A stretch of DNA of 64,000 bases, taken from the NCBI GenBank assembly GCA_001799845.1, contig MGUG01000013.1, positions 22,597 through 86,596 on the forward strand, read 5' to 3'. Positions within the stretch are counted from its first letter, which is position 1, and the number at the start of each line of letters is the position of its first letter. Origin of the DNA: Elusimicrobia bacterium GWC2_64_44 (lineage in GTDB: Bacteria > Elusimicrobiota > Elusimicrobia > Elusimicrobiales > UBA9959). The notes beneath the pieces were generated by a model, which was given only the letters and a program-made list of their open reading frames with translations, was not told the DNA's origin and did no database searches. Made by a program: the position numbers and the translations under genes. Of the stretch, positions 31,625 through 63,884 are shown one piece after another.

Positions 31625-31700
31625 ATTCTACCAAAACAAAACCGCCGGGCTTCCCCGGCGGCTTCGACCAGTTAGGAAGATAGGAAGCAGCGTCCCCTCT
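31625..31700 (-). promoter_or_regulatory. full module: orphan type-B stop block + hairpin + TTTTGTTTTGGTAGAAT
   Basis: Block AGGGGACGCTGCTTCCTATCTTCCTAAC (31672-31699, minus). Stem-loop 31642-31661. TAGAAT 31625-31630. Confidence 0.65.
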
Positions 31701-31812
31701 CCCCCTCGTCCCCGCTATCCAAAAGGCCCACCCCGGAGTGGGTCTAATAACGCAGGGTTCAAGGCACCCCGGCCCATACGCCCGATATGCGGATCTGCCA
31801 TAATATATACAG

Positions 31813-32649
31813 ATGAACCCCACAAAATACGTTGCGCTTCTACTCATACCCCTTTTAACCCTTTCAGCCCTTCCCTCCCCGGCCGCCGCGGCCGCGGAGG
31901 TACAGCGCTTCTGCACCATGGACACGGCCGTGGGCCAGCTCATGAACAAGGCCGGTATCCCCGAGGATCTGCAGCGGGAGCCCGTGGTGCGGATGATGGC
32001 CGAGGACCTGGTGGCCGCCAAGCTGGCCGAGAAGCCGTCCGACACCGTGAAGATAGTCTGGAAAGATATTTACGACATGCGCGGCAGCGTGAACGCCTGG
32101 CTGGCCCAGAACGGCCATCCCTTTAACTACGTAGGTCAGGCCCTGGACGCGGTGGGTTCCGGTCTCACCGGCACCGTCGCCGGCAAAGTACTGATGATGA
32201 ACACCCTCATGCTGTCCGGCCCGGCCGGCTTCATAATGCTGGGCGGCATGAACATCACGCAGGAGACCTTTCAGTGCAACCCCAGCGGCATAGTGATGGC
32301 CGCCAACGCCGGCGCCACCATAGTGGTGCTGATCCCCTGGTGCCGCGTCCCCGGCGTAGGCAAAGGCTGCGTGGCCCTGGAGCACGGCGTGGCTAAAGGC
32401 ATAGAGAAGACGGCCGCCGGCCTCTTCGGCAAGGAAGTCACCGCCACTTTCCTCAAGTCCACCACCAATGGCGTCATGATGGCCATAAAGTTAAAATCGA
32501 CAGACCTGGTGATGACCGGAATGGAACTCCTGAACTACCTGGACCAGAAAAAGACCGTGCGCCAGGTGGACTTCGAAGTCGGAATCCCCGTGGACGCGGC
32601 CATAGAAGTCCCGACGCAGGCCCCCTCCGTTAACTGGGACAACCGCTGA
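31813..32649 (+). CDS. hypothetical secreted/membrane protein
   Basis: Signal peptide, Gly/Met-rich hydrophobic core. TAATAT box 6 nt before ATG 31813. Confidence 0.55.
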   Translation: MNPTKYVALLLIPLLTLSALPSPAAAAAEVQRFCTMDTAVGQLMNKAGIPEDLQREPVVRMMAEDLVAAKLAEKPSDTVKIVWKDIYDMRGSVNAWLAQNGHPFNYVGQALDAVGSGLTGTVAGKVLMMNTLMLSGPAGFIMLGGMNITQETFQCNPSGIVMAANAGATIVVLIPWCRVPGVGKGCVALEHGVAKGIEKTAAGLFGKEVTATFLKSTTNGVMMAIKLKSTDLVMTGMELLNYLDQKKTVRQVDFEVGIPVDAAIEVPTQAPSVNWDNR

Positions 32650-32671
32650 CGGCGGCGTCCCGCCCGCCAAA

Positions 32672-32737
32672 AAAGAACCGCCGGGCTCCCCCGGCGGCTT
32701 TGCATTAGTTAGGAAGATAGGAAGCAGCGTCCCCTCA
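32672..32737 (-). terminator. module: type-B stop block + hairpin (no -10), convergent position
   Basis: Stem-loop 32678-32697 (loop CTCC). The block abuts TGA 32735-32737. Confidence 0.65.
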
Positions 32738-33244
32738 GCCCACGTAGATGCGCCGGCTGGCGGCCAGGTCCACGCCCTCGGCGTCCAGGCTCACCTGCAC
32801 GCGCCACTCCACCCTGCTGCCAAAGCCGGTCAGCAGGCTCAAAGCCCCGCCCAGTATGGAGTTCCCCTCGCGCACCTCGCCGGCGGGCAGCGCTATCTTG
32901 AAATTGTAATTGGCCGTAAAGCCCGCCGGGTAAACGCGGGCTTCCTCAACTATCTGGCTAGCGCGGTAAACTTCGCGGGTCCTGCGCTGGCTGCGGCCTT
33001 TGTAGTTGCGCTCGGTATAGGTCTCCGTGGCCACCAGCGCGGCCACAAGCCTGTTGCCGTGTATTTCCTTCTTCGCCTCCAGCGCGAAGGTCCCTTCGAC
33101 CAGCTCGCCGCGCGCGAACGATTCCCTCTGCAGCGCTATCTTGATGCTGCCCTTCAGGAACCGCACCACAAAATACGCGGCCGCCCCCGCAGCGACAGCG
33201 ATAGCAACCACGATTATCAGCAAATTAACTGTTTCAGGCGCCAT
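32735..33244 (-). CDS. membrane-anchored hypothetical protein (Spo0M/arrestin-like fold guess)
   Basis: N-terminal TM helix then a beta-rich domain. AAGGGAGA SD. The functional call is weak. Confidence 0.5.
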   Translation of the reverse strand: MAPETVNLLIIVVAIAVAAGAAAYFVVRFLKGSIKIALQRESFARGELVEGTFALEAKKEIHGNRLVAALVATETYTERNYKGRSQRRTREVYRASQIVEEARVYPAGFTANYNFKIALPAGEVREGNSILGGALSLLTGFGSRVEWRVQVSLDAEGVDLAASRRIYVG

Positions 33245-33272
33245 AACATCTCCCTTTTTATCTATATCCCGA

Positions 33273-33312
33273 ATTCTACCAAACCGCCGGGCTTAGTTTG
33301 CGTCCTCTCAAC
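33273..33312 (-). promoter_or_regulatory. truncated module (half stem) + TTTGGTAGAAT
   Basis: GAGAGGACGCAAACTAAG-CCCGGCGG-TTTGGTAGAAT. The left stem arm is missing. Confidence 0.5.
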
Positions 33313-33314
33313 GG

Positions 33315-61988: not shown

Positions 61989-61998
61989 CGTGACACTC

Positions 61999-62484
61999 CT
62001 ATTTAAGATTCTTAATGTAATAGCCGATGGCCCGCTCGTATCCGCCTGTGAAGGGCGGCGGCAGGCCGCCGCAAACACGGAACAGCTCGCGCGCGGAACC
62101 CTTGAAATCCCCGGCCGAATATAACGCCAGCGCCAGGAAGATGCGCAGCTCCGGGTTGGCCGGAAAGCGCTTCACCCCCTCGCGCAGCACCGACGCCGCT
62201 TTCGCCAGCTTCTTATTGTTGCGCAGCGTGCTGCCGTAGCCCACAAAGAAACCGGGGCGCTCCTTACCGGGCAGTTCACGCCAGGCCTTGTAAACTTTCT
62301 CATAGCAGGGCTCGGCCGCGCGCTCGCGCCCAAGGAAATCGTTGCAGCAGGCCAGCCTGTACCAGGCGCGTGTATCCCCGGCGTTGCCTGCAAGGTATTC
62401 TTCCAGCAGCGGTATCAGCACCTTCTTCGCCTCCGCCGTCCGCGCCGCCCCCAGCTGCCGTATCTTCTTCCTGATATCATTCAT
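61999..62484 (-). CDS. TPR-repeat protein
   Basis: Helical repeats with W/Y-L-A-x-C/A-Y pattern. ATG 62484 is 6 nt after TGGTAGAAT (62491-62496). Confidence 0.5.
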   Translation of the reverse strand: MNDIRKKIRQLGAARTAEAKKVLIPLLEEYLAGNAGDTRAWYRLACCNDFLGRERAAEPCYEKVYKAWRELPGKERPGFFVGYGSTLRNNKKLAKAASVLREGVKRFPANPELRIFLALALYSAGDFKGSARELFRVCGGLPPPFTGGYERAIGYYIKNLK

Positions 62485-62490
62485 ATCCAG

Positions 62491-62571
62491 ATTCTACCAA
62501 AACAGAACCGCCGGGCTTCCCCGGCGGCTTAAGAGCGAACGTCAGTTAGTCATCTAGTGATCAGCGTCCCC
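62491..62571 (-). promoter_or_regulatory. full module: type-A stop block + hairpin + TTCTGTTTTGGTAGAAT
   Basis: Stem-loop 62508-62527 (loop CTTC). Block GGGGACGCTGATCACTAGATGACTAAC. 6 nt to ATG 62484. Confidence 0.65.
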
Positions 62572-62572
62572 A

Positions 62573-63025
62573 TTATTCCTTCGACGGTTTGTCACCAGCC
62601 CCCGCGCCGAAGAGTTTCTGGAAGGCGGCCATTTCCATGGGGTGCATCTCCATGTCGCCCCGGCCGCGTATAGTGAAGTTTATCCTGTAGTTTTTCTTTA
62701 GCGAGAGCATGGCGTACTGGGCCTCGTTGGGGTTGAGCGCAAGCACCACCCCGTGCAGATCGCCCTTGTCTACGGTATCGAGCACCAGCACGTTCTGCAG
62801 TATGGTGGCGGTGAGCGTCTGCGTCCCGTCCTTCATGACGGCGTCGAAGGTGACCGTCATGTCCAGGCGGTCGCCGGGCTTAATGTAATGCAGCTCCACC
62901 CGCTCCGTGGGCACCACCGTGGCCCTGTAGCCTGGCGGCACGTTCAGCTTTGCCGCGCCTGCGAAGGCCGCCCCCGCGCACACAGTCATTACCGCCGCGA
63001 ATACCGCTATCCTGGTAGTTTTCAT
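62573..63025 (-). CDS. secreted RcpC/CpaB C-terminal-domain-like protein
   Basis: Signal peptide. IKPGDRLDM...ILQNVLVLD...VVLALNPNEAQ...L pattern of the CpaB beta-clip domain. GGGAGG SD. Confidence 0.5.
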   Translation of the reverse strand: MKTTRIAVFAAVMTVCAGAAFAGAAKLNVPPGYRATVVPTERVELHYIKPGDRLDMTVTFDAVMKDGTQTLTATILQNVLVLDTVDKGDLHGVVLALNPNEAQYAMLSLKKNYRINFTIRGRGDMEMHPMEMAAFQKLFGAGAGDKPSKE

Positions 63026-63120
63026 ATATCCTCCCGGGAATCCTATTTTAGAGCTGTCCGCAGAAACACGGCCTTACGTTCACTCTCACTTATGATTACG
63101 CCCGCGGAGGAAAAGTATTA

Positions 63121-63176
63121 CAAACGAAACCGCCGGGTTCCCCCGGCGGCTTAAACACGAACATCAATTGGGATCA
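63121..63176 (-). terminator. module: block variant + hairpin + TTTCGTTTGTAATACT
   Basis: Stem-loop 63130-63149 (loop TTCC). Block GGGAGAACGTTGATCCCAATTG contains the racemase stop codon. Confidence 0.6.
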
Positions 63177-63884
63177 ACGTTCTCCCGCGGCGCGCAGGGC
63201 GGCGCGGGCCAGCAGGCGGGTAGAATCCAGCAGCGGCAGGGAGGTATCCCCGGGGCGCAGCAGCAGCGGGATCTCCGTGCAGCACATCCCGGCGCAGTCG
63301 CAGCCTTCGCCGTGCACACGCTCTATCACTTCCAGGAAATATTCGCGCGCCTCAGGCGTAACGCGCCCCTCCGTAAGCTCGCCGAATATGAAGGCGTTGA
63401 TTCGCTCCCGCTCGGCCTGCGCCGGTATGCGGCACTCAAGGCCGGCCGCCGCGAGCCTGGCCGGGTACACCGGCCCCTCCATAAGGTAGCGCGTGCCTAG
63501 CAGCGCCATGCGCCGGCAGCCCAGTTTGCGCGCCTCGGCGGCCACCTCGTCGGCTATATGCAGCCAGGGCAACGGCGAGCGCCCGGCAAAATGGTCCATG
63601 GCCTGGTGTATGGTGTTGTCCGGCGTGATCAGGAAATCCGCGCCCGCGCCGGCCAGCACCCGCGCCGAGCCCAGCATCAGCTCCGCCACGCCGGCCCAGT
63701 CGCCCTTGTTTATATGGCGCATGTACTCCGCCAGCGGGTAGGTGTGCATGGTGACTTCCGGGTGAAAGGACTTCTCCCCGGTAAGAGCCGCGCCCTCGGT
63801 GCAGATGGTCTGGTAGCACAAAGCCGCCCCCGGCGCGCTGCAGCCCACTATGCCTATATGTTTGAACCCGTTTCGTTCGGCCAT
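63174..63884 (-). CDS. aspartate/glutamate racemase family protein
   Basis: IGIVGCSAPGAALCY and CCTEIPLL catalytic-Cys contexts. ATG 63884 is 6 nt after TGGTAGAAT (63891-63896). Confidence 0.8.
   Translation of the reverse strand: MAERNGFKHIGIVGCSAPGAALCYQTICTEGAALTGEKSFHPEVTMHTYPLAEYMRHINKGDWAGVAELMLGSARVLAGAGADFLITPDNTIHQAMDHFAGRSPLPWLHIADEVAAEARKLGCRRMALLGTRYLMEGPVYPARLAAAGLECRIPAQAERERINAFIFGELTEGRVTPEAREYFLEVIERVHGEGCDCAGMCCTEIPLLLRPGDTSLPLLDSTRLLARAALRAAGER

Follow-up and report, generated by a model that had tools for sequence, protein, structure and literature searches.

A block of approximately 30 nt recurs in a 64,000-nt stretch of Elusimicrobia bacterium GWC2_64_44 (contig MGUG01000013.1, positions 22,597 to 86,596 of the forward strand), which is referred to in its full length as the window. 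This block is very probably one arm of a dispersed repeat family that forms the terminal inverted repeats of TIRtrons in Elusimicrobia, that is, of elements built around a transposase gene of the TIRYT class. The same sequence was found as single arms, as inverted dimers and at both ends of a transposase gene. It is not a new type of gene-expression signal.

In the window the block consists of AGGGGACGCTG and two units of 7-8 nt ending in CTA. The 13 copies are single arms, all on the minus strand, and a hairpin of the form CCGCCGGG-N4-CCCGGCGG with a T-run begins 3-17 nt after every one of them. The arms always lie between a gene end and this conserved intrinsic terminator, with the anchor facing the gene, and because of this placement they should be transcribed as part of the 3' untranslated region (UTR). 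An extended pattern, AGGGGACGCYGNTYNCTA, occurs six times in the window, each time on the minus strand, and is absent from 100 dinucleotide-preserving shuffles. The conserved block before the hairpins that had been pointed out in an earlier reading of the bare letters (the sequence-only reading) is thus real. Exact copies of the 9-mer anchor number seven, every one of them on the minus strand and in the range 31690 to 58300. If one mismatch is tolerated, the 9-mer alone is not enriched in the window (27 found, 30 expected), so that the non-random signal is the 30-nt context. When the window was scanned with a weight matrix of 125 unique arms from other genomes, ten arms were recovered, one of them (12969-12998) outside the range covered by the sequence-only reading; three decayed arms (36408-36437, 45854-45883, 63156-63177) were seen by eye and score under the matrix threshold. 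As one of 20 shuffles gave an outlier score of 20.9 with this matrix, significance was taken from the dinucleotide-shuffle control instead. Two readings of individual copies were corrected: the copy at 46541-46570 reads GATTCCTA-GATGAGTA and not GATTACTA-GATGACTA, and the copy beginning at 62572 actually starts with TGGGGACGC. The arms and their hairpins are as follows.

12969-12998, minus strand: degenerate arm AGGGGACCCTGGTGACTTAATGACTAGTTA, weight-matrix score 18.3, hairpin 14 nt downstream
12935-12954, minus strand: terminator hairpin and T-run, then TAGAAT, with ATG 6 nt on
31669-31698, minus strand: arm of subtype B, AGGGGACGCTGCTTCCTATCTTCCTAACTG, score 45.7, between divergent genes, with no co-directional gene upstream in the gene map
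31642-31661, minus strand: terminator hairpin and T-run, then TAGAAT
32706-32735, minus strand: arm of subtype B, its base 1 overlapped by the TGA of gene 32735-33244
32678-32697, minus strand: terminator hairpin between convergent genes
36408-36437, minus strand: degenerate arm of subtype C, AGGTGACGCCGATCCCTGGAG..., the altered anchor containing the stop of gene 36432-36956
36387-36406, minus strand: terminator hairpin and T-run, then TAGAAT
40701-40730, minus strand: arm of subtype C, AGGGGACGCCGATCCCTAATTCCTAAATGT, 85 nt past the stop of gene 40816-41538
40673-40691, minus strand: terminator hairpin and T-run
45854-45883, minus strand: degenerate arm of subtype C, AGGGTACGCGGATCCCTAATCAAG..., preceded by TAGGGGAT, which holds the stop of plsY (45889-46494)
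45833-45852, minus strand: terminator hairpin and T-run, then a degenerate palindrome copy at 45799-45818
46541-46570, minus strand: arm of subtype A; gene 46559-47077 ends at the arm TGA, positions 10-12
46519-46538, minus strand: terminator hairpin and T-run, then TAAAAT, with ATG 8 nt on
48971-49002, minus strand: arm of subtype C, AGGTGGACGCTGATCCCTAATTCCTGATTGC, with 1 nt inserted in the anchor, its start overlapped by the TAG of gene 49000-49803
48947-48966, minus strand: terminator hairpin and T-run
52761-52790, minus strand: arm of subtype A, AGGGGACGCTGATTACTAGATGACTAACTT; gene 52779-53294 ends at the arm TGA
52739-52758, minus strand: terminator hairpin and T-run, then TAAAAT
55639-55668, minus strand: arm of a subtype-B variant, AGGGGACGCTGTTTCCTCTCTTCCTAACTC, its base 1 overlapped by the TGA of gene 55668-56456
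55616-55635, minus strand: terminator hairpin and T-run
58271-58300, minus strand: arm of subtype A, found by anchor match and weight matrix
58238-58257, minus strand: terminator hairpin and T-run, then the palindrome GGCGACAGGCCCTTGTCGGG (58204-58223)
62543-62572, minus strand: arm of subtype A, abutted by the TAA of gene 62573-63025
62508-62527, minus strand: terminator hairpin and T-run, then TAGAAT, with ATG 6 nt on
63156-63177, minus strand: strongly decayed possible arm GGGAGAACGTTGATCCCAATTGATG, assignment uncertain
63130-63149, minus strand: terminator hairpin

The family is not confined to the window, a limit for which the sequence-only reading had allowed, and is widespread in Elusimicrobia. 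An 18-mer scan of one genome per species (596 Gb) gave at least 115 loci. Among the matches listed, approximately 25 Elusimicrobia genome bins account for 86; the remaining 29 are single hits from unrelated taxa, which is about the chance level in 596 Gb by our own arithmetic (approximately 280 chance matches expected from the pattern probability). The 86 Elusimicrobia loci (632 kb, designated by L numbers) hold 50 inverted pairs and 68 single arms. In an inverted pair, an arm and a reverse-complement arm enclose a 0-75-nt spacer, giving 55-131 nt in total, and this is the usual form in most Elusimicrobia genomes. The outer ends of the pairs read AGGGGAC...GTCCCCT, and the spacers are mostly unrelated from copy to copy. 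At least six subtypes have a common outer anchor, GGGGACG(C/T)TG, and a different pair of tandem 7-8-nt units; the three types distinguished in the sequence-only reading recur in other genomes alongside further subtypes. Over all arms, the upstream sequence is enriched in T at -1 (42%) and in G at -5 to -3. Perfect palindromes are found among the pairs, for example in L020, whose pair folds at -33 kcal/mol, whereas the folding of single arms is no better than that of shuffled sequence (z = 0.0 to 1.1). Paired arms have a gene end on their outer side in 42 cases and a gene start in another 42. Of the pairs, 21 lie between tandem genes, 8 between convergent and 8 between divergent ones, so that the family is not restricted to the 3' ends of genes.

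These properties bear on the idea that the block acts in RNA, either as a site for an RNA-binding protein or RNase in the 3' UTR or as the body of a stable 3'-derived small RNA. In its favour, the window copies stand between stop codon and intrinsic terminator and should be transcribed, the anchor AGGGGA resembles a Shine-Dalgarno sequence, and repetitive extragenic palindromic (REP) repeats of E. coli are reported in a preprint as 3'-UTR regulators (bioRxiv 10.64898/2026.03.23.713779). However, Rfam at gathering score gave no match in the whole window, single arms are unstructured, the spacing from arm to hairpin varies from 3 to 17 nt, arms in other genomes are also positioned upstream of genes and in divergent regions, and the subtypes differ in precisely the part that would need to be read. 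As the explanation of the block such an element is held to be highly unlikely; a secondary, co-opted RNA role of the arms is possible. Three other candidates were tried and rejected. RNA pairing of AGGGGA with the pyrimidine-rich units would need G-U pairs in subtypes B and C, the only ones in which it is possible; subtype A lacks it. Integron attC sites, judged by core sites and with no search made for an integron integrase, have RYYYAAC/GTTRRRY, which the outer ends AGGGGAC...GTCCCCT do not match, and the genes here have their own promoters. A boxA of the lambda nut type, suggested by CGCTCTTAAG before some hairpins, is part of the hairpin module and not of the arm block. A tRNA search of the window found nothing.

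The identity of the family is indicated by the gene that its arms enclose. At ten independent loci (L016, L038, L041, L123, L125, L129, L131, L133, L135 and L137) inverted arms of one subtype flank a gene of 300-330 aa, with an arm on one side only at some of them, where the contig ends or an insertion sequence (IS) intervenes. In L041 and L016 two inverted arms approximately 1 kb apart enclose an open reading frame (ORF) of 303 and 320 aa, respectively. Eight further loci with homologues also have flanking arms of one subtype, and the downstream arm often overlaps the stop codon. Matches to Pfam Y1_Tnp score 40 and 35 bits (cutoff 23), and the HUH motif and the catalytic Tyr are invariant. 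Homologues number in the thousands, the closest are from Elusimicrobia, and several were named RayT by the Joint Genome Institute. The C-terminal part of a profile of the ten proteins matches DnaA domain IV (2HCB, 1L8Q) with E = 1.5e-4; a sequence search with a single protein against PDB found nothing, DnaA being reached by the profile only. Pfam Bac_DnaA_C is precomputed on many homologues. Judged by these matches, the enclosed gene is predicted to encode an IS200-like Y1/HUH tyrosine transposase with a C-terminal helix-turn-helix (HTH) domain resembling DnaA domain IV. In the TIRtron of L133 (213-1995) a passenger ORF of 177 aa (377-910) with no Pfam match lies between a complete dimer (213-358) and the transposase gene.

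[quoted passage not shown] Target-site duplication beyond chance was found at none of seven offsets (-3 to +3) in the 50 dimers, the only gene repeatedly enclosed by arms is the Y1/HUH transposase, and the IS3 element of the window (56602-57704) is unrelated to the arms. A MITE origin is regarded as extremely unlikely.

The repeat units of the arms differ with the transposase that they flank, as listed here by subtype (units after AGGGGACG, recognition helix of the HTH region, and unit type).

Subtype A: L016, units CTGATTACTAAATGACTAA, with variants in L038 and L133; helix GQSAVSRL, unit ACTA-type
Subtype B: L131, units CTGCTTCCTATCTTCCTAA; helix SSGAVSKL, unit CTTCCTA
Subtype C: L041 and L137, units ATTCCTAATTCCTAATT, with a variant in L129; helix (N/K)QSGISKL, unit TTCCTAA
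Subtype D: L125, units TTGTTGACTATTTGACTAT; helix SDSAVSRL, unit TTGACT
Subtype E: L123, units TATTTGACTTTTTGACTAT; helix SDSAVSRL, unit TTGACT
Subtype F: L135, units TTGTTGAGTTGTTGAGTT; helix SRSGVSRL, unit TTGAGT

Among the ten proteins the N-terminal Y1 domain is 65-87% identical and the C-terminal HTH region 37-62%, with the exception of L041 and L137, both of subtype C, at 77%. The recognition helix appears to co-vary with the repeat unit, which is suggestive in a small sample of ten proteins. Because of this co-variation the tandem units are candidate sites of the HTH domain that would set specificity. The proposal that the units are iterons is accordingly plausible where they are taken as protein-binding sites of the transposase HTH. 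In the mechanism put forward, the TIRYT transposase would make and maintain the arm copies, its Y1 domain acting at the invariant anchor and its HTH domain reading the tandem units; where a repeat replaces the 3' end of a gene, a stop triplet of the arm would become the working stop, as is seen for two genes of the window. A more far-reaching version comprises a two-part site (anchor for Y1, units for HTH), at least six orthogonal, co-evolving transposase-repeat pairs with several per genome, and single arms fixed before the terminator in the lineage of the window as back-up stops or 3'-end elements of the host. It is offered tentatively, as it is rather doubtful that all of this would hold together.

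At comparable sites, copies of the family differ between genomes. One orthologous site is empty in L019, holds a subtype-B dimer in L121 and a subtype-C dimer in L090, with no duplication at the site; the MAFFT alignment misplaces the short left flank of L019, and the raw sequences with BLAST coordinates are clearer. L040 and L066 have a common site with unrelated spacers and differing unit lengths, and L015 and L043 a common site with a related spacer, both arms being altered alike. A 128-bp dimer in L100 is located exactly at the site that in L133 carries the 1.8-kb TIRtron (dimer, 177-aa ORF, transposase gene and final arm). After the orthologous gene in L084 the arm is of another subtype than the window arm 55639-55668. 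At the strain level, L001-L006, which are 99.8-100% identical to the window, show no gain or loss of arms.

TIRtrons and TIRYTs were described by Di Nocera (2013) as elements and proteins, respectively, in which genes like those of REP-associated tyrosine transposases (RAYTs) carry long terminal inverted repeats without REP hairpins; the repeats share a GGGGWSAS motif in "some" or "the majority" of cases and make up moderately abundant families as singles, dimers and groups (PMC3733652). Quentin (2018) placed most TIRYTs in TnpA_REP subclass 2.1, with a C-terminus of the Bac_DnaA_C, HTH_23 or HTH_28-like type, and doubted that the HTH reads the repeats, which do not resemble DnaA boxes (PMC6006769). 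Elusimicrobia are absent from both papers, and the family is therefore a known class newly placed in this phylum. The likeness comprises a RAYT-like Y1/HUH gene between long non-hairpin inverted repeats with G-rich outer ends, a downstream repeat that often overlaps the 3' end of the gene, a C-terminus of Bac_DnaA_C-like or HTH type, and scattered repeats as singles, dimers and groups. The C-terminal domain on which subclass 2.1 is recognised was found in the Elusimicrobia protein through the profile match to DnaA domain IV. In contrast, the Elusimicrobia arms combine an invariant anchor with two subtype-specific units that co-vary with the HTH helix, which is not seen in PMC6006769, and in a subset of Elusimicrobia genomes single arms are fused one way to a terminator of conserved sequence.

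The REP/REPIN-RAYT systems are similar in having short extragenic inverted dimers with a spacer, a homologous Y1 transposase flanked by the repeats, distinct repeat families paired with distinct transposases, and no target-site duplication (Nunvar 2010, PMC2817692; Bertels and Rainey 2011, PMC3116915). The classical REP unit is an imperfect palindrome with a GTAG (or CGTC) tag, whereas the Elusimicrobia arms do not fold and have no terminal GTAG; the complementary strand of the anchor does contain CGTC, but this does not terminate a stem-loop. The Elusimicrobia transposase has in addition an extra HTH domain, and the spacers are mostly unrelated. For the fusion of arm and terminator the closest precedent is found in Pseudomonas putida and P. 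fluorescens, where a transposase-associated repeat unit is joined to an unrelated stem-loop in many copies (PMC3733652, Fig. 8B). In those species the unit consists of a degenerate GTAG REP, and it is the composite that flanks the transposase gene, whereas in the window the stem-loop is a terminator of working type followed by a promoter, and a composite stands beside a transposase gene only in L137. Correia (CREE/NEMIS) and Rickettsia palindromic elements are likewise small intergenic inverted repeats that are co-transcribed and can supply gene ends or protein tails. Correia elements show TA duplication and carry promoter and IHF-binding sites, and neither they nor the Rickettsia elements are known to be tied to a Y1 transposase.

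The role of the DnaA-like domain in TIRYTs was left open in 2018. In this regard the Elusimicrobia family is a natural experiment on recognition by that domain, with a constant anchor, units that vary with the helix, many subtypes, and both empty and filled sites. To our knowledge, transposases and repeats of the TIRYT type have been catalogued and never studied experimentally. For annotation, a conspicuous intergenic repeat of a poorly known phylum is thereby explained.

The sequence-only reading had proposed instead an undescribed module of stop block, terminator and promoter. On this view the block would be a dedicated fail-safe for translation: belonging to an insulator of stop, terminator and promoter, it would be selected to halt ribosomes ahead of the terminator hairpin, whatever their frame. 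The count in that reading for type A was correct: arms of this type have TGA at positions 10-12 (frame 0), TAG at 17-19 (frame 1), TGA at 21-23 (frame 2) and TAA at 25-27 (frame 0), and thus cover all three frames, and types B and C of the window cover one and two. Three-frame stops occur in 55-72% of arms of subtypes A and C, compared with 5% for a null of independent columns and 0.7% for one based on composition, copies within a subtype sharing descent so that the counts are not independent. Moreover, the two unrelated genes 46559-47077 and 52779-53294, which share only the repeat-encoded tail ...AVKGRGR*, both end at the arm TGA, and a gene stop overlaps or abuts the arm start in 4-5 further window copies and at many other loci. 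Against the proposal stand the bases themselves. Near-invariant in the 125 unique arms are G2-G11 (GGGGACGCTG), T13, C16-T17-A18, T21 and T25-A26, whereas the stop-completing positions 12 (A 52%, C 37%), 19 (A 58%, T 38%), 22/23 (G 33% at 22) and 27 (A 64%, T 32%) are the least conserved of the arm. None of 44 subtype-B arms has three-frame stops, paired arms are as frequent at gene starts as at gene ends and are found in divergent regions too, the arm 31669-31698 has no upstream gene, approximately two thirds of the hairpin modules of the window are without the block, and the same sequence flanks transposase genes. The fail-safe stop is judged to be highly improbable. Three outcomes had been named beforehand as speaking against the module, namely stop triplets conserved no better than their surroundings, a block restricted to the window, and identity with the end of a known mobile element. 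The first and the last were observed, the stop-completing bases being the least conserved in the multi-genome alignment and the block being, very probably, the terminal inverted repeat of the TIRtron/TIRYT class; the module is not supported.

The stops look like a by-product, since the bases that complete them are the least conserved and three frames are never covered in subtype B. In our own reading of the alignment the CTA cores would be what is conserved and the stops would come along with them, making insertions at gene ends tolerable rather than being the reason for the block. Short C-terminal tails such as ...AVKGRGR* are accordingly repeat-derived and call for caution in annotation. In a gene that runs off the window end (63927-64000, minus strand), the 3' end (GGCTACATAGAGCTGCGCGCGGTAAAGGGCGGGGGCCGCTCCTGA) is parallel to the tail that gene 52779-53294 derives from the repeat (compare 52791-52830, minus strand), with a mutated anchor and without tandem units; either the gene is a paralogue or this is an older insertion that has decayed.

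The orientation of the arms relative to the terminator is fixed. Both the window arms and 17 arms from other bins stand 5' of the CCGCCGGG terminator, their anchor toward the gene, and never on its other side; L137, with arms on both sides of such a hairpin, is the exception. In L011, L084 and L042 a short remnant of the partner arm remains between arm and hairpin. Simple random insertion does not predict this orientation, so that selection, a strand-specific mechanism or copying of the composite must be added. Three causes are possible: by analogy with IS200/IS605, a strand-specific single-strand mechanism might operate; the arm-terminator composite might be copied as a unit; or selection might act, the gap between terminator and promoter being too tight for insertion. 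As arms, genes and negative GC skew are all on the same strand in the window, these causes are inseparable there.

Several observations weigh against the assignment of the block to TIRtrons. There is no transposase gene within the 64-kb window, and we know of no TIRYT for which transposition has been demonstrated experimentally. The best NCBIfam match of the enclosed gene is the REP-associated tyrosine transposase (NF047646), at 68.9 and 62 bits and thus under the equivalog cutoff of 80, and Pfam Bac_DnaA_C reaches 27.5 with a single sequence, under its cutoff of 31.5. The anchor GGGGACGC agrees with GGGGWSAS at seven of eight positions, with G for A at position 7. The arm is 5' of the hairpin, and in one orientation, in every one of the 25 arm-plus-terminator composites. 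Finally, 32% of unique arms have three-frame stops compared with 5% under the column-independent null, and selection on the stops in subtypes A and C is possible.

The terminator to which the arms are joined is itself a family. Approximately 33 near-identical intrinsic-terminator hairpins (CCGCCGGG-N4-CCCGGCGG and TTTTGTTTTG) are distributed from 883 to 63926 on the minus strand (examples at 12935-12954, 28504-28523, 53929-53948 and 62508-62527). The stem sequence is conserved across genera and recurs in other Elusimicrobia bins (L011, L027, L056, L059, L084, L112, L119, L137). TA[GA]AAT directly follows 17 of these window hairpins, and in 12 of the 17 a start codon is located 3-9 nt further on, which suggests promoters with a -10 box only and leaderless mRNAs. 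The tandem units might be the operator of a transcription factor controlling the promoter just past the terminator: they lie approximately 45-75 nt upstream of the TA[GA]AAT box, and direct repeats are typical of activator sites. However, the distance to the -10 box is variable, the block-bearing modules at 32678, 55616, 58238 and 45833 have no recognisable -10 box, and arms elsewhere are found between convergent genes and as palindromic dimers; there is hardly any likelihood left for an operator.

Motifs resembling the anchor are present elsewhere in the window. Two fragments had been noted without a hairpin. Lying after a TAA and 11 nt upstream of an ATG, the fragment at 49804-49820 reads as a Shine-Dalgarno sequence; that at 60676-60693, which overlaps a TAG stop, may be an arm in decay. 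The AGGGAC[AT]C motifs noted before three other hairpins (19586-19625, 23665-23705 and 60186-60210, minus strand) are present and are not followed by tandem units; they may be remnants of another subtype or chance occurrences. G-rich partial anchors (GGGGAC/AGGGGA) are stacked immediately upstream of some arms, as in L049 (approximately 3937-3976, minus strand) and in the window (31699-31725, minus strand).

A palindrome, CCCGACA-N6-TGTCGGG, followed 5 nt on by CTGCTAT(N)(C/A)TAT, was found upstream of all ten transposase genes, and also upstream of ORF6N-domain genes, a radical-SAM gene, which by eye we take to be of the DNA-repair type, and others. Its positions are as follows.

58204-58223, minus strand, window: palindrome
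45799-45818, minus strand, window: degenerate copy
L041, L038, L123, L125, L129, L131, L133, L135, L137, L002, L056, L084, L027 and L068: palindrome in other loci

The palindrome may serve a single regulon, possibly a damage-inducible one, as operator and promoter. The ORF6N-domain gene of the window (57637-58170, minus strand) seems to be broken and adjoins an IS3-type insertion with two ORFs (56602-57704, plus strand); the ATG after the palindrome runs into a stop at approximately 24 codons, and it is in a separate ORF, starting with GTG, that the Pfam match sets in, at profile position 18.

The window carries an ordinary set of chromosomal genes, mostly on the minus strand, including plsY, a GNAT acetyltransferase, a glyoxalase, msrAB, a trehalase and methyltransferases. 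Its genes are 80-89% identical in DNA sequence to loci of Elusimicrobia bins, and proteins identical to those of the window occur on groundwater metagenome contigs. A phage genome, an idea arising from the co-directional genes each with a terminator-promoter cassette, was rejected: there was no megablast match to phages, the chromosomal gene content and the identical proteins on groundwater contigs also speak against it, and the one match from a scan of viral contigs amounts at best to part of an arm, with neither a partner arm nor a hairpin near. The GC content is approximately 0.65 over the first 28 kb of the window and 0.55-0.60 beyond 44 kb. The lower-GC part holds 12 of the 13 arms, the IS3 element and the ORF6N gene, and may be a more flexible region of the chromosome.

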